From Thalia democratica (taxonomy: Eukaryota), in assembly GCA_965202585.1 (NCBI GenBank), contig OZ241826.1, forward strand, positions 93,992,001 through 94,056,000: 64,000 nt of DNA, written 5' to 3'. This document shows positions 1 to 28,620 of the stretch, piece after piece. The notes under the pieces were generated by a model, which had not been told where the DNA came from, made no database searches, and was given only the letters and a program-made list of their open reading frames with translations. A program made the position numbers and the translations under genes. Position 1 is the first letter of the stretch, and each line of letters begins with the position of its first letter.

Positions 1-1
1 A

Positions 2-136
2 AACATTAAAGCGTATTTTCCTAGGGAGGATCTTAACAAAAATGGCGAAAAAATAGGGAAAAATAAAGCGTATGATTTAAGAGAACGAAGAAATAAAATT
101 AATTACGCAGAAAGTTCATCTGATGACGAAATATAA
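2..136 (+). CDS. pol: C-terminal 44 aa of retrotransposon Pol/integrase (5' partial)
   Basis: Frame 2 reads NIKAYFPREDLNKNGEKIGKNKAYDLRERRNKINYAESSSDDEI*. NIKAY resembles the end of the gypsy integrase CTD (N/R-LK-x-Y), and YDLRERR..NY.E is the common Y-x-LR-x-R tail of Pol. Confidence 0.6.
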   Translation, partial: NIKAYFPREDLNKNGEKIGKNKAYDLRERRNKINYAESSSDDEI

Positions 137-963: not shown

Positions 964-2685
964 ATGTTCCGTGTAGTAGTTTGTCTGATTCTGGTCCTTA
1001 TTATAAAAGCGGATGAGGTTATCCGTAAGCAATACTTACCGCTTTGCGAAAACTTTCCAGTAAAAGCCTACAAGCTGACAGACCCAGGCCCTTGCAAATC
1101 TTATAACGCCACACAAATAGTGTCCCCTGTTGACGTTTACAGACCAATAGACGACACGAAAACATTAAAAGCAATTGCATGTAGAGTTAAAATTGAGTAT
1201 CATGAGTGTACTTATTATTTTTTCTTTTCCAAAAACTGTATTTTGAAAAAGGTCGAATATCGACCGGTAGACGCTGATACATGCAAGCGTGCAGAAAGAA
1301 ATAGGGTTACAAGGCAGGGAGTCTTATCCCCAAAAACTGATAAAACACTTTCATCCAGAAACATTCTTAAACCAGTGTTTAGTTACCCGTGGACCACGGT
1401 AAATAAAGTCGAGAATTTTATACTCGCATTTATAACGGTTAACAAAGAGAGATCTTCGAAAACGTTTTCTCACATAACACTTGGAACTTTAAGATGTAAG
1501 CAAGAAGAAAAAGTTTGCTCAGCTGATAACTGGATCATCGTATACGAGGAAAAAATAGAAAACAGTTGCAAAGACCCACCAAAAATAAAAAATACCAGTC
1601 TGGTTTTGCACACTACGGCAAACGGCGTAATTTACGAGATTAAACAAACTAATCTCATTTCCACGATTCTTTCAAAGTGTGACGATAAAGTAACTAGATG
1701 TATACCTACAAAGGAAGGGGAAAAACTATTATGTTTTCTTTCCGGTCACGTCATTAAAATCAATGAGAGTGCAAATGTTTCATCGACAGAAGGGTTATTG
1801 ATGAACACTTCAACAAAATTCAAACAATTGTATGCAGCACTAGCAACAGTCGCAAATATAAATTTGTTAAACACACAGCTACTGCAGCGTGTTTTCGAAA
1901 ACGCGCTATGCAAGAACGCACGAACTAGTTTAGTAAGTTTAATGGGGTCTCAAAAGTTTAACCCTTCGAAAACTTTAAGCTTCCTGTTGGAAAGGGAAGT
2001 TAATGCTGTTTTCTCGGCTGGATTGTTACGCGAACTTAAGTGCGAGATGGTTGAGGCATACTTGCAACCAAGTCTTAATTATAAAGGTCGCATTTCTGAC
2101 CGACCTCTTTTTCAGGCCTATGTTGGTCTGGGGACGGTAATGACAAGCCTCCGTCAGGGGCGTTTCTTGTCAAAACATATTTCAAATACTGTTTTTACCG
2201 CAAAACAAAAACACTTTGAGTTCCGTGACAACGTTTTACTTTTTGAAAACGAAACGCTTGTGAACGAGCGACCTTCGATTCATCGAATAACAATTAAAAA
2301 TTTAAATCTTAAAGAAAAATTATTTGCAATCAATGAAAGCGAAATGGCAAAAGACATTGAACTTATTACTAGTTCTGAAGAAGAAAATACAAAGGAACAG
2401 CTGAAAAACCTCATCTATTTAACAAAGAAAACATACGAGGCCCAAGGCATTGATATCGAACCTTATCTATTGGAAGGCCAAGGGTTCGATTTTTCTTTTC
2501 TTACGGACATTTTCACATCAGTAACTTCCGGAATATGGGGGAAGGCAGGAAACATCATCGATATTCTGACCAAAGTATATACGATTGCAATATCCTTGCT
2601 TCTGATAACGGTCATTGTTCAATCAGTACGAGAAGGAATGTCAAAAGTTTGCGGAAGAAGAAGGGCGATACAGGTTGAAACTTAA
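964..2685 (+). CDS. env: Envelope-like class III viral fusion glycoprotein (gB / mononegaviral G-like)
   Basis: Signal peptide from Met28 of the ORF (MFRVVVCLILVLIIKA), 14 ectodomain Cys, several N-x-S/T sequons, and two aromatic loops (CTYYFFFSKNC, VFSYPWTT). The segment LCKNAR..KFNPSKTLSFLLEREVNAVFSAGLLRELKCEMV..ISDRPLF parallels herpes gB [46 protein letters not shown]. An amphipathic membrane-proximal region, a C-terminal TM helix and a short basic tail follow. No stops. Confidence 0.85.
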   Translation: MFRVVVCLILVLIIKADEVIRKQYLPLCENFPVKAYKLTDPGPCKSYNATQIVSPVDVYRPIDDTKTLKAIACRVKIEYHECTYYFFFSKNCILKKVEYRPVDADTCKRAERNRVTRQGVLSPKTDKTLSSRNILKPVFSYPWTTVNKVENFILAFITVNKERSSKTFSHITLGTLRCKQEEKVCSADNWIIVYEEKIENSCKDPPKIKNTSLVLHTTANGVIYEIKQTNLISTILSKCDDKVTRCIPTKEGEKLLCFLSGHVIKINESANVSSTEGLLMNTSTKFKQLYAALATVANINLLNTQLLQRVFENALCKNARTSLVSLMGSQKFNPSKTLSFLLEREVNAVFSAGLLRELKCEMVEAYLQPSLNYKGRISDRPLFQAYVGLGTVMTSLRQGRFLSKHISNTVFTAKQKHFEFRDNVLLFENETLVNERPSIHRITIKNLNLKEKLFAINESEMAKDIELITSSEEENTKEQLKNLIYLTKKTYEAQGIDIEPYLLEGQGFDFSFLTDIFTSVTSGIWGKAGNIIDILTKVYTIAISLLLITVIVQSVREGMSKVCGRRRAIQVET

Positions 2686-3246
2686 ATTAAAACATTAAAC
2701 AAAAACTAAGTTTACACATTTTTTTTTTTCTTTTTCTAAAACTTTTTTTGATCAATAAATCTATTTTAAACTTTTATATAAACTTTTAGATTTAAAATAC
2801 AAAAACCTAGTGCCTTAAGTGTAATTACTAAGATACTCACAAAATTCGCAATTGTAGTTTTATCGTTAATCAAATTAATAACAACTTTTTTTCTGTTTTG
2901 ACAAATGTTAGATTTAAATATAGTATTTTAAACTTGTTGTTTTTCAAATAATTTCCTAGTTTTTTTTTCTCTCAGTAAATAAAGTAAACTAAAATCTTGA
3001 TTACCAGTGAACGATTTATCTACAATATTTTTGTTAAACTTATTAACTATTCACATTATAGGCTCGTTTGTGTTTAAAAAGTTTTACCTTTTTTTTTTGA
3101 GTTAAAGATTTTTCAAAGGACTTATAAATTTGGAAACAAAATTACTTTTTAGATTAAACGACGAAATTTGCTTTTAATCGATAACTCATATCAATTTTTG
3201 ATAACATCTCCCAATTTTGTGTGTGAATCGCAAAAACAAATTTGTT

Positions 3247-3410
3247 TTATTATCTGACGAATATAATCTTTGTAACAATTTAACAACCAGTTTTTGTTCT
3301 GTTCTCAAAACAAATCAGTTTTATTATCTGACAAATATAATCTTTGTAACAATTTAACAACCAGTTTTTGTTCTGTTCTCAAAACAAATCAGCTTTATTA
3401 TCTGACAAAT
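3247..3410 (+). repeat. 74-bp tandem repeat (2 full copies plus a partial) between env and the small ORF
   Basis: TTATTATCTGAC recurs at 3247, 3321 and 3395; the units are nearly identical. Confidence 0.95.
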
Positions 3411-3599
3411 GTAATTTTTTTATAATTTAACTCCCAGTTGTTTTTCTCTGTTATTAAAACGAATCCTTTTTGTTTTTCAAATCGTTAATACATCGACCTT
3501 TCGAGAAATCAACTCTCAATTTGATTTTTTCCCTACTGGCACATAAGAAGAGCGGACATTGGAAGTTGCTGTTTCAAATTTTGTACACTTGGCATTAGG

Positions 3600-3854
3600 A
3601 TGTACCATAGAGATTATAGCCCAATTCATCGTCGTCGAACAAGGTCTAGGTCACCAACACCAAGAAGAATTAAAGTTGAGTGGGATGCCCCCACAATAAA
3701 AATCCGTGACAGCGAGGATACAGGGTCAAGGAGTGATCGAATTATCCAGAAGTTGGAAACGTGTTACCAAGTTTTCGCTAGAGTACAAGCAATAACCATG
3801 TTCATTGCAATGGTTATCATTGTGTTGAAAGCTGCTCTTGGAATCAATACATAA
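3600..3854 (+). CDS. 84-aa accessory ORF: Arg/Ser-rich N-terminus and C-terminal hydrophobic helix
   Basis: GC-richer island with RRRTRSRSPTPRR near the N-terminus and ITMFIAMVIIVLKAALGI at the C-terminus; lies between env and the PPT. Confidence 0.65.
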   Translation: MYHRDYSPIHRRRTRSRSPTPRRIKVEWDAPTIKIRDSEDTGSRSDRIIQKLETCYQVFARVQAITMFIAMVIIVLKAALGINT

Positions 3855-4022
3855 ATTGGTGAAGAAGGAACAGACATTGTACATAAGAAATTTATAAACA
3901 ATGAACACTATATTTAATAGAATATTTTTTTTTGTGTTTTTGTGTTATGTGTTTATTACAAGTTAAATTTATGTTGTTTAAATATCTTTTTGAAGAGCAG
4001 CTTTGATCATTTTTTCGTGAGT

Positions 4023-4042
4023 TAAGAAAAGTAGGGAAAGAG
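4023..4042 (+). other. Candidate polypurine tract
   Basis: AAGAAAAGTAGGGAAAGAG followed by TG at 4047. An alternative purine run at 4085-4096 directly precedes TG at 4097. Confidence 0.5.
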
Positions 4043-4046
4043 TTTT

Positions 4047-4750
4047 TGTCTTTTAACTAGGCTTTAATTACTAAGTTAAAAAGTAAAAAAAGAAAATGTC
4101 ATAATATTAATATCGAAATTTTCGTAAACAATAAAAACTGCGATAAGCTTTCTCATCGGAATTTTCGTAAACAATAAAAAGTGCGATAAGCTTTCTCATA
4201 AAAATCATTTAAAGTTGCATAACAAAATATCATTAAAAAACAAAACTGCGTTAAGCTTTCTCATCGGAATCTTCGTAAACAATAAAACTGCGATAAGCTT
4301 TCTCATAAAAAATCATTTAAAGTTGCATAACAATAATCATTTTCCCATAAAAAAGCCAATATTGAGAGAATATGTGTTCTTTCCGAATGCATATATAAGC
4401 GGTTGTTTAAGAAACAGTGCTCGCTTTTTGTTATGCCCTTGAAACAGCGCGGAACTCAACTATAAGCCGCAGGAAAGGTTTACTACGATCAAAGCTGCTA
4501 CGACTTTCAAACGGATATCTGTAACGTGTTAGTGTGTTTTATAACTTGTCACTGCACTTTATACTTATTAAAGCACAATTACTTAATCACACTGAAGTTG
4601 TATAAAATAGCAGAAGTTTAGTAATAATATAAATGCCTCCAACGCGCGGAAAAACTTCCAAGTCGAAGAAACTTTCCCTTCAACGAGTTTTGCGGTCCAA
4701 GGACAAAACGGACAAATCGACTAACATGGATAACTCTAATACAGGTTACA
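4047..4750 (+). mobile_element. Candidate 3' LTR (start 4047 or 4097; end ...GGTTACA)
   Basis: Contains U3-like tandem repeats (about 4110-4335), a TATA box (GCATATATAAGC near 4389) and ATTAAA near 4567, and ends in TTACA. No second LTR in the window to confirm it. Confidence 0.5.
4110..4335 (+). repeat. Nested tandem repeats of about 43 bp and about 120 bp in the putative U3
   Basis: TTCGTAAACAATAAAA occurs 3 times and (G)CGATAAGCTTTCTCAT 4 times with one variant; AAAATCATTTAAAGTTGCATAACAA occurs twice. Confidence 0.9.
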
Positions 4751-7621
4751 GTTTCAAGTGCACTGAACTAATCATAGACAAATATCAGTTGAATTTTTAA
4801 AGTGTTTAAAAACTCTACAAATAAAGCTTACTATCATCTTGATATATTTAAAAAACTTTTGTTTTTTAATGTGTTTAAATACCTATCTTAATATATAGTC
4901 ATCTAATGACTCTGTGTTCATTACATTTAAAATCCAATGTATAAATACGTAACTGAAATCTGTTTTAAACATAAACAACAGGAACTTGTTGTGTTCATTT
5001 AACAATATAGTTTAAAATAATAAAAGTTTTCAAAGAACTTTTATTTAAATGTTGAAAGGTGTTTTTATTTAAACATAACTTCTAGCACTTTAAAAATAAA
5101 AAATGTTTAAAACAAAAAAAATTATAATTGATATAACTACTTTAAGAAATAGCATTAAATAAAAATAAAACTTATATATTACAGCTAAGGTAAACATCTA
5201 CAAATAACTAAAGCAAAAAGTTTTAAATTTAGTATGTCCACACTTAGTGACGTCATAAGCTTTTACACACAAAAAAAAAGTCTCGAACTTTAAATATAAT
5301 CTTAAGTGTTTTACACTTGTTAGTTTGTTATAAACTTGAATATAATTATATTTGAAATTTAAAAGTCCCCAGTTGTGTGCCTAATATTGGTAGAAATCAA
5401 ATGTTCACAAAAGGACTTTACTAACAAAACACTGTTCAAAATAAATGTTTAAAAATTAAATGTTTAAAATAAACCTGTTATTTGCACTACAGTGGTAGTA
5501 CTTGAAAGTGTATTTTGGTAAATATACTCATGTTTATGTAAAAAAATCACTTGACGCAAATCTAGATCACCATTTTAAGTATTACAAATAAAAGTTAGAC
5601 ACCAGTTTTAATGGTTTCAAATACAAAACTCGCCTACAATTTTTAGAAACGATTCTAACGATTGACAGTTTACTCGTGTAAGAAGTCTATCATAAAGAAT
5701 GCCACTTAAAAATAAAGTATTTAAAAACAAATCTTGTGAAACTTGATATTTATATATTCAAAGGAACACAGGTATTTATATAATAGTATATTATAAGTAA
5801 AGCTGAGTGAAATCATAAATATAAGAAACTATAATATGAATGATTTGTTTATGCACTTGTGTTACTGAAGCTATGCTAAGTAACAAATTAGAATAATAAT
5901 GATTTTCAACTAATAACTTTCATTTCTTATTGTAATAAGTTGTTGTAACCAAAGTGATTACAACTTAAGAAATAAGACTGAAAATAAAATACGATTTTTT
6001 TACTCAAGTTTTGTTCTCAAACAATCCTTCAACACTAATCGTTATGCGGAGGTAAAAAAGAAAAATATTTTTAAAGGGTTCAATATTTTTGATTGTAACT
6101 GAACAATAGTTAGATAGTAGTTAATGTTTTTACCAGCTTACTTATTTATTGTTCATTATTTAAGACCTTCTAGTAGAACTATTTATTATCTAATTTATTT
6201 TGTACAATTTATTACAATATTTTATATTGAATCGTTTTATCGTACCACTTAAAAGCTTTTTATTGTATTTTAATATTGTTTTTTTTTTAATCTTAAATCT
6301 ACAGAAGTATTAGACAGCAAAAACGATAAAATTGAAGTACAGAATTTTTAAGTTTTTTTCAATACACAAACTTTTATTGTTAAAGCTCACTAAACACTTT
6401 TTTTTAATATTTAAATATTTATACCTTTCATACACATGTTAAAAATATTTTTGAAGCTTTAAAACTTTCTAAATGCACATTCAATTAATGTAGCTGTATT
6501 TCTTTTTCTTTTTTAAATAAATATAAATAAGTTGTAGTGACAAATAATTAATTTTTGATTTGTTCTTTATTTTTTAATTTTCATTTACATTAGAACGTTT
6601 ACGCTTAGGGATAATTTTAGTGTGACTTTACAATTGGAATTTGACATAATTATTACTTTAGTCTAGACTTAGTATTACTCGATATAAATAACCAGGCACA
6701 ACAATTGAGTGGGTTTCTCTATTAGACGAACTACAATGAACACAAAATCAATTGTAAAAATCACAAGAAGTATTAAATATGCAATTTGAGTACTAAAATA
6801 CTGTATAATAACCACTATGAAAAACTCAATAGTATTTCAAGAAATACTTATTATTAAATGCAAAACCAAGTGTTCAAAAATACAAGAACTATAAATGTAT
6901 GTGACTTATGTGAAAAATGCTTTATATTTAACCACTGTAAAAAATGCTTTAAATAATTCACTTGTTGAAAATCAAAAGAGCTATAAAAATGTACAGTAAG
7001 AGAATTAATAAACTTACTTTAAATAACAATCTTAAATCTAACAAACACAATAATAATTATATATACTAAAACTTTATAAAACAACTTAATACCAATATTC
7101 AAGTGACTTTCTTGTAAACAGTCTCTGCAGCTCCTGGCGGTTCAACACACAACTCAGTCTGGACTGTCAGCTTGTGACTCAAAACATTAAAATGATCGTT
7201 ACATCATACAGTTTTGATTGTACGCCTTAAAAGAGAAATGCACTCTCATTCTCTTTTATTCTCTTTACGTCATAAAAGAAGAATGCGCTCTTATTCTCTG
7301 TGTTATCTTTCTCACTTTTTTGTTACATCAGACTTTGCCCGGGCAAGACTTAGAAGTGCAATAACTCTTAGTTTTCTCTTAAAATAAAAACGGTTTTTAA
7401 GTGAAACTCGGAATATTGTTACAGTATTAGTCAAGATATTATTTTTTCTTGTTAAAAGTTACGAACTTGATTACTAGTCGTTTATTATACTGAAGTATGA
7501 TTAATGAATATAGTATCAGTACCTTCGTAAAAAACATTAAAAGCTTTTAAAAACTCTAAAGCAAAAACTTTATATTGTTTAAAAAATATTAAATTTAATA
7601 TCAAAATATGTAAGTTTATAT

Positions 7622-8946
7622 ATACTATCATCACTTCACAGTAGATTAAAACAATACAACTACCACATCACAGTAGATAGCAACACTACAACTATCACAT
7701 CACAGTAGATGCAACAATACAACTATCACATCACAGTTGATTGAAACAATACAACTATCACATCACAGTAGATGCAACAATACAACTATCACATCACAGT
7801 TGATTGAAACAATACAACTATCACATCACAGTAGATTAAAATAATACAACTATCACATCACAGTAGATTAAAATAATACAACTATCACACCACAGTAAAC
7901 TGCAACACTATAAGTATCAAATCACAGTGGATTGCAACTTTACAAATTTCACATCAAACTAGATCGCAACACTATAATCTACTATTATCATATCTTCGTC
8001 GTTTAATTATTTAAGAAACCAAACTTTGACAAAACTCTTTAAAAGGCTCAGTACTTTTTAGAGTTGTCTTAAGTTTACATAAATGTTCTTCCTATAGGTC
8101 TTGGAAAGTTAAAAATAATTGTCGGAAATCTATCACTTTGTAATGGAATACTAGTTAAACTGCGTTTCCATTTAGATGTATACTGAATAAAGTAGAGGAT
8201 AGTTATGATAAAATGAGTCTTTTGAAAGATTTCCCAGGCTATGTTCATCTATATGTATACTGAGTTTCGGCAGAGACATGTACTTTAGACCACCTTGCTG
8301 CTGCTACATTTTGTTCAAGTAGACATTTGTATTTTTTGTTGTTAAATTTAAAACTTGTTTTCAAAAAGTGTTTTTTTTTTTTTAAACTGCAATTTTTTTT
8401 TTTAATTTAAGTACTTATTTGTAATATGACTTGATACATAAGTAGAGTATACTCCTTTAAAATTAAATTATTAAGTAAAGTTTTGACCACATTTAAGATA
8501 TTTGCTAAAGTATTAATTTTCTTATACGTTTGTTAGTTTTTGCAATTGTCAATTCAAGTAATGCCTAGTTTTCATAAGTAGTTCTAAGTACCATTTGATA
8601 TAAGTATTAGTTGGGTTAATGTTATTATTTATTTGATATGCGTTATAGTGTAGGTATAAAGTACACTATAACCTTATCTGCAATTTAAAATGGTTATAAC
8701 TAAAAAAAAACTTTTTATTTTAATTTTTACTGTATTTATTTGTAACGTTGCGATCAACTGTGATGTGATAGTTGTAACAATGCGATGTACTGTGATGTTC
8801 TAGTTGTAGTGTTGCTATCTACTGTGATGTGATAGTTATATCGTTGCAGTTTACTGTGATGTGATAGTTGTATTGTTGCAATCTACTGTGATGTGATAGT
8901 TGTATCGTTGCGGTCTACTGTGATGTGACAGTTGTATTGTTGCGAT
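7622..8946. mobile_element. Foldback-like element: inverted arrays of a 31-32 bp unit around a spacer of about 770 bp (copy 1)
   Basis: TACAACTATCACATCACAGTAGATTGCAACAA-like units at 7655, 7687, 7718, 7750, 7781, 7813, 7845, 7877, 7909; the reverse-complement array lies at 8741-8946. Confidence 0.8.
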
Positions 8947-10245: not shown

Positions 10246-10626
10246 ATGGAGTGTACTGATCGTGATATGCAAGCTTGCAACCATTATTTTGCTAAAAGAG
10301 TTCATAATGAAATAGATTTTTTGTTTCCGAAACCCTTGTATCCAAATTTAAGTATCAATTACAATGAAGGATGCAACTTTGCTTTCATTAATTTCGGAGG
10401 TACAGGCGTACAAGGATGTGTGAAGTATAACAGATTTTATATTTCTGTCGACCCGTTTCGCCCTGGTAACCAAGTTACAAATTGTAGTTACCCATTTTCA
10501 CCATATGTCATAACGGGCAGGTTGATGTTGGATGATAAGTTTAAGAACGTTCATTTTTCTTGGTTAAAAATTGAGGATTTGGAAGCAGATCTTATTGGTT
10601 TGGAAAGAAAAGCTAGAAATTGTTGA
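10246..10626 (+). CDS. 126-aa orphan protein, copy A
   Basis: GC-richer ORF with an acceptor-like TTTTTAG shortly upstream. The paralog at 49562 has the same length and an intact frame. No recognisable domain, no signal peptide. Confidence 0.8.
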   Translation: MECTDRDMQACNHYFAKRVHNEIDFLFPKPLYPNLSINYNEGCNFAFINFGGTGVQGCVKYNRFYISVDPFRPGNQVTNCSYPFSPYVITGRLMLDDKFKNVHFSWLKIEDLEADLIGLERKARNC

Positions 10627-28494: not shown

Positions 28495-28620
28495 ATTAAA
28501 CATGCTATCAAATATAGTGTGATAGTTGTATTGATATAGTCTAATGTGATTTGATAATTGTATTGTTGCGGTCTAATGTGGTTTAATGGTTGTATTGTTA
28601 GAGTGTACTGTGATATCATA
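28495..28620 (-). repeat. Degenerate fragment of the 32-bp foldback array
   Basis: GTGTGATAGTTGTATTG..TTGTATTGTTGCGGTCTAATGTG..TACTGTGAT matches the unit at 8741-8946. Confidence 0.7.

Follow-up and report, generated by a model that had tools for sequence, protein, structure and literature searches.

The DNA analysed here, hereafter the window, is a stretch of 64,000 nt from Thalia democratica (contig OZ241826.1). Near its start lies the 3′ portion of a young Ty3/gypsy (Metaviridae) LTR retrotransposon that carries an additional open reading frame, ORF X, between env and the 3′ LTR. Its features in the window are as follows.

1-136 (+): 3′ end of the pol frame (protease-RT-RNase H-integrase), which begins upstream of the window (locus L022, 5525-9136)
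911-929 (+): pyrimidine run and TATA-like box (TATATAG) that precede the ATG at 964 by 34 nt; putative internal env promoter
964-2685 (+): env, 573 aa from the ATG at 964 (600 aa from 883), with signal peptide, ectodomain and C-terminal TM; class III (gB-type) fusogen-like
3233-3465 (+): 74-bp tandem repeat, 3.1 units, in the env-X spacer
3527-3567 (+): conserved block TTTTTCC...(C/T)A(C/T)ATAA...GAG...CATTGGAA; putative internal X promoter
3600-3854 (+): ORF X, with a disordered Arg/Ser/Pro-rich N-terminal part (aa 1-36) and a predicted helix (aa 37-80), amphipathic and then hydrophobic
4074-4096 (+): purine tract adjoining the 3′ LTR, likely the PPT
4097-4756 (+): 3′ LTR of 660 bp (TG...CA), with the same sequence as its 5′ counterpart, a TATA-like box at 4392-4398 and the first 41 gag codons from 4633
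4757-4760 (+): 4-bp target-site duplication, AGTG

The other genes lie immediately upstream of the window in locus L022, where we found the 5′ LTR, a 446-aa ORF in the gag position and, in the −1 frame relative to it, a pol frame of 1203 codons whose first 79 nt overlap the end of gag (L022:5525-5603). The order of the pol domains is gypsy-like according to Pfam, the DTG, YLDD, HHCC and GPY motifs are present, and the closest solved relative in the PDB is Ty3 Gag-Pol (E 1.2e-75). No Pfam match and no PDB sequence match was obtained for the 446-aa ORF. One nucleotide past the 5′ LTR, at the place of the primer-binding site, a sequence starting with TGG forms a putative PBS, and a second purine motif at ∼4021-4042 is common to the three subfamilies A, B and C described below. 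Since the LTRs are identical over 660 bp and accompanied by a 4-bp target duplication, the insertion is very recent. We also observed that the gag ATG is located inside the LTR (window 4633-4756; L022:4263), such that 41 codons are part of the LTR and the frame crosses the primer-binding site; gag-like starts of a similar kind were seen in the 3′ LTRs of several related families.

For env, the most likely start is the ATG at 964, which would give a protein of 573 aa with a signal peptide, because the 27 codons upstream of it hold a stop in all three B and C copies that could be aligned that far. A structural model of the protein (pLDDT 53) had herpes gB and rhabdovirus/chuvirus G among its top Foldseek matches, with E-values down to 5e-13. 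HSV-1 gB itself was matched with an E-value of 5.6e-10, but the TM-score was only ∼0.2 with this model of pLDDT 53. By its position after pol, its predicted class III fold, its signal peptide and its TM, the modelled env fits the definition of HSV/gB-type errantiviruses (PMC13524379). Searches of PDB sequences and of IMG/VR and JGI metagenome contigs with env returned no useful match.

ORF X encodes 84 aa, including RRRTRSRSPTPRR and a single C-terminal hydrophobic stretch, exactly where the preliminary description had placed such an ORF between env and the PPT. The distance from the env stop at 2685 is 914 nt, in line with the gap of about 900 bp with 74-bp tandem repeats reported there, and 242 nt separate the end of ORF X from the 3′ LTR. 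When the env-LTR region was shuffled globally, an ATG-initiated ORF of at least 84 codons arose in 43 of 3000 shuffles, and one of at least 80 codons arose in 92 of 3000 shuffles by 100-nt blocks.

Further downstream, the window contains inverted arrays of a 32-bp minisatellite (7630-7971 and 8740-8946, ∼770 bp apart), which are possibly a foldback/MITE-type element, as well as arrays resembling this minisatellite at 28520, 44470 and 45424. A 126-aa ORF without Pfam match is present at 10246-10626 (+).

Copies and relatives of ORF X

A DNA search revealed at least 21 close copies of the element (family A), in 19 of which X is open; one copy carries a stop and one a frameshift. Homologues of X occupy the same post-env position in two related subfamilies. 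In subfamily B, whose env is 88% identical, X is 120-121 aa long as the result of an in-frame insertion of 32 residues and is open in four of five copies; repeat-like matches to the 74-bp spacer repeat are found there as well. Subfamily C/C′ (env 63% identical) yielded 14 matches, of which 12 are open at 79-80 aa, one has a stop and one is cut by a contig end, that is, 12 of 13 when only complete copies are counted. Four further, older loci carry a degraded X. Length changes between subfamilies preserve the frame, and the G+C content of X (0.40-0.44) exceeds that of its flanks (0.23-0.30) in A, B and C, with 0.42 versus 0.24-0.28 for the ORF in the window. Seven aligned X proteins share M1, P8, R13, R15-S16-R17-S18, E53, Y56-Q57-V58, R61 and K77; unchanged in all seven are RTRSRS, one (S/T)P near the N-terminus, the E..YQV..R signature and a final K. 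In an integrase tree, the families with X group as a single clade (support 100/100). The 13 rows of this tree were obtained from 20 loci tried after leaving out seven with too little integrase, and they include no locus of the 692-aa ORF family described below.

X is open in seven of the eight family-A copies that have lost most of env, which argues against a strict cis partnership with Env. Seven of the 21 family-A copies (L030, L031, L033-L036 and L167) keep only env residues 1-67, and most of these retain gag, pol and X. This suggests an env-less sublineage within family A.

Outside the source genome, public protein collections contained only three unnamed metagenomic homologues of X, which are 52-57% identical over the core and have longer tails; no named relative was found there. 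X had no Pfam match above cut-off, no match in the ESM Atlas and no useful match among JGI metagenome contigs. We considered an origin from the env TM tail and rejected it, since hhalign gave a probability of 0.3 (E 0.18) and profiles scored below 3 bits with both env and gag.

We also inspected the post-env slot at 11 loci of more distant env families and found large unrelated ORFs at five of them and none at six. In a sister family with an env ∼40% identical, a fourth ORF of 393-400 aa follows env (L111:4361-5560, − strand; L112:4604-5782, + strand); part of it is coiled-coil-like, Pfam gave no match, and its two copies differ by 64 amino-acid changes versus 78 expected (P = 0.001), indicating purifying selection. 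A family with an env ∼37% identical carries a fourth ORF of 692 aa (L115:3338-5413, − strand; L117:4794-6869, + strand), which begins with an Arg/Ser/Asp-rich region, is split in two in L116 and is weakly similar to the 400-aa ORF (E 1.5e-4); downstream of this ORF lies a G+C-rich tandem repeat. X had no significant match to these large ORFs, the best being of low complexity (E 0.012).

Selection and expression signals

The comparison of C with C′, which were aligned as DNA without codon information and tested against a null that keeps substitution types, is the cleanest and the only one between subfamilies that does not depend on motif anchoring. The 37 substitutions are distributed 13/4/20 over the three codon positions and cause 16 amino-acid changes where the null predicts 25.0 on average (P = 0.0002). 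No gaps fall within the ORF, compared with 19 in ∼1.1 kb of flank, and shifting the sense frame brings dN/dS above 1. Amino-acid changes were also fewer than expected between A and B (core, 31 versus 37.3, P = 0.004; N-block, 11 versus 17.1, P = 0.0004) and between A and C (core, 25 versus 30.6, P = 0.001), with P = 0.06 for the core of B and C, in blocks anchored on conserved motifs, a procedure that biases these three comparisons toward selection. Within A, shared variants in X gave no selection signal (pN/pS 0.80, p = 0.42, versus 0.15 for pol), and single pairs were not significant (A versus its most diverged allele, P = 0.68; B versus B, P = 0.21). A non-coding control counted as codons had a pN/pS of 0.41-0.48; a raw dN/dS below 1 is therefore insufficient here, and raw NG86 values were given less weight after this control.

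We read these comparisons as pointing to a genuine gene whose constraint is loose but long-standing, with purifying selection between subfamilies and not within A or B. We regard it as highly probable that X is a functional fourth gene. The preliminary description had proposed a four-gene gag-pol-env-X element and considered that disruption or loss of the ORF in other full-length copies, or a lack of a transcript or of purifying selection, would speak against it; since most copies retain the ORF and purifying selection is seen between subfamilies, the proposal is supported.

The 3′ end of the element has diverged further than the remainder. Between A and B, X is 43% and env 88% identical, with a dS of ∼1.9 in X versus 0.31 in env, and DNA identity falls from 89% to 68-81% from ∼240 nt past env through the LTR. 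This points to recombination or to a faster rate in the 3′ module.

Conserved motifs suggest that X and env are expressed from internal promoters of their own. TATA-like boxes stand upstream of both X and env, and another lies inside the LTR; the one preceding env is also present in B, in C and in a family with 42% env identity, and the box preceding X reads TATATAA in B, C and C′ and a degenerate CACATAA in A, including the window. No other ATG lies between this box and the start of X at +41 to +53. As TATATA(A/G) is common (1-8 per 10 kb in the seven loci scanned), it is the conserved position of the boxes and not their rarity that lends support. There is precedent in the Oikopleura elements Tor3b and Tor4b, for which PMC4402516 describes transcription of env from an internal promoter. 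In one metatranscriptome run, a contig spans 3600-3861 with 40 differences and no gaps, and assembled contigs of the same run cover all 30 bins of the element; these contigs carry neither start nor strand and come with no silent stretch for comparison. No splice-like joint into X is listed among them. We examined the alternative that splicing joins X to env or gag as a 3′ exon and consider it unlikely: no YAG acceptor is common to A, B and C, and the frame in C is open for only three codons upstream of the ATG, which argues against a spliced tail exon. Transcription of X from its own internal promoter is the likely arrangement, as judged from these motifs.

Predicted protein and possible roles

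AlphaFold predicted a disordered N-terminal part and one helix spanning aa 37-80 (mean pLDDT 67). In A, B, C and C′, its N-terminal half has an amphipathic moment of 0.54-0.59. The second half resembles a TM in A and B, where the C-terminal 13-19 residues are hydrophobic on all faces, and is weak in C, below the usual hydrophobicity of a TM. Accordingly graded, the Kyte-Doolittle maximum over 19 residues is 2.49 in A (aa 64-82), 2.05-2.14 in B and 1.42-1.48 in C and C′, where a central Asp is present. The tail anchor assigned to X in the preliminary description is hence plausible in A and B, which are sufficiently hydrophobic, and doubtful in C and C′. In A, B and C, the stretch after the helix holds just 1-3 basic residues. 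X has no Gly2 for myristoylation and no ectodomain; its basic region comes first and its hydrophobic helix last.

The preliminary description had suggested that X may be a matrix, egress or fusion accessory linking RNA or capsid to membrane. We tentatively favor a role of X as a phospho-regulated adaptor that would hold element RNA or capsids at a membrane, which we see as possible rather than probable. A short capped mRNA would start at the TATA-like box and end in the 3′ LTR, the RTRSRS/SP arm of its product would bind RNA and be switched by SRPK/CLK/CDK-type kinases, and the helix would insert into or lie on a membrane, as a tail anchor in A and B and probably in amphipathic form in C. At the membrane, X might help to bring particles to where Env is. 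This preference is based on analogy, both with SRPK-controlled RS domains and with sORF2 of the MDG1/412 group, which co-localizes with capsids. According to PMC8040976, SRPK-phosphorylated RS domains govern RNA packaging in the HBV core protein, and RS domains also occur in coronavirus N and the lamin B receptor. Against the adaptor count the lack of a selection signal within subfamilies, the weakly hydrophobic helix of C, the degenerate TATA-like box in the window, the survival of X in copies that lost env and the absence of a fourth ORF from 6 of the 11 sister-family loci, so that the wider clade does not need one.

X could instead act in the nucleus, either in Rev- or CERV-like export or stabilization of genomic RNA or as an inner-nuclear-membrane tether like the lamin B receptor, with a helix used for oligomerization or nuclear-envelope anchoring. 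The conserved Arg-rich arm with its RS and (S/T)P sites would suit this role, as would the amphipathic half of the helix in all four groups, the retention of X upon env loss and the dependence of CERV-mediated genomic RNA export on S214 phosphorylation described in PMC10309623. However, CERV is, by its description, a large three-domain protein unlike X, internal promoters for env and X would presumably lessen the need to protect unspliced RNA, and the all-round hydrophobic C-termini in A and B fit poorly; we consider a nuclear regulator rather unlikely. We judge it unlikely, too, that X is a fast-evolving host-interaction protein with an anti-silencing or anti-restriction function, carried in a post-env slot that serves as an exchangeable cassette. 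Such a protein would agree with the excess divergence of X over env between A and B, with the drop in DNA identity that gives the 3′ module a different history or rate, with near-neutral amino-acid change within A and with the finding that sister families fill this slot with unrelated ORFs of 393-400 and 692 aa, but no test gave an excess of amino-acid change and recombination alone could explain the gap in dS.

It seems improbable that X is a mere passenger of the 3′ untranslated region, non-functional or in decay. Selection was not detected within families, the TATA-like box is degenerate in A and the four older loci are broken, whereas selection between subfamilies, frame-keeping indels, the G+C island and a start context conserved over a divergence that saturates synonymous sites all argue for a gene. 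We find it most improbable that X is a cell-cell fusogen of the FAST/sORF2 kind or a viroporin-like helper. Like sORF2 as described in PMC11952523, it is small and combines one hydrophobic helix with a basic region, but proteins of this kind have an N-terminal myristoylation motif and ectodomain and a polybasic region C-terminal to the TM, while X has the reverse order and lacks Gly2 and an ectodomain; moreover, the element already has Env and the helix in C is weakly hydrophobic.

X represents a new small-protein family and a candidate for delivering capsids or RNA to an Env-bearing membrane or for regulating RNA.

Comparison with known elements

In complex retroviruses, the interval from env to the 3′ LTR contains accessory genes, for example tas/bet in spumaviruses and pX in HTLV. 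The slot is that of X, but the retroelement family is a different one. Some retroviral 3′ accessory genes are stated in general terms to use an internal promoter (PMC4402516). On the broadest reading, which we consider doubtful, the clade would be a ‘complex’ errantivirus with a promoter-bearing post-env slot that encodes a kinase-switched RNA-to-membrane micro-protein, as a separate equivalent of a matrix or tegument, in one branch and unrelated large proteins in its sisters; if true, this would be a counterpart, evolved independently in Ty3/gypsy, of the accessory genes that complex retroviruses carry near their 3′ end.

The statement in the preliminary description that canonical gypsy elements consist of gag-pol-env only understated precedent, as accessory ORFs have been published for the MDG1 group (sORF1 and sORF2), for Cer1 (CERV) and for rotifer elements (ORF3s). 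Like X, sORF1 and sORF2 of MDG1/412 elements are small accessory ORFs of a gypsy lineage, but those elements have no env, whereas X coexists with one (PMC11952523). In the description given there, sORF2 has one TM and a basic patch and co-localizes with capsids at membranes; its N-terminal ectodomain, frequent myristoylation motif and basic patch after the TM are arranged in reverse to X. CERV is likewise an extra gypsy-encoded protein under phosphorylation control, by a presumptive proline-directed kinase, but it is large and nuclear, has three structured domains and is made from a spliced mRNA (PMC10309623). Tor3b and Tor4b are env-bearing and gypsy-like, and their env mRNA starts at an internal promoter, located for Tor4b in the pol-env intergenic space, similar to the putative one here; no fourth gene is seen in them as described in PMC4402516, and promoter use in the window element is read from motifs only.

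Accessory ORFs are thus already known from other gypsy elements, and it is the conserved small ORF after env in a gB-type element that appears to be new. The literature searched contained no report of one; the family could be present in the supplements of PMC13524379 or in other papers. Neither an extra nor a small ORF is mentioned in the main text of that article, where the word ‘accessory’ is absent (it occurs twice in a longer version), and the pipeline described by Chary and Hayashi annotated three ORFs only. Env-bearing gypsy elements have been described as three-gene systems, and surveys ending at env may miss accessory genes. The HSV/gB-type errantiviruses portrayed in PMC13524379 share with the window element a Ty3/gypsy pol, the gag-pol-env order and a gB-like env with signal peptide and TM, and they likewise occur as multicopy young insertions; to this plan, the window element adds a conserved fourth ORF after env.
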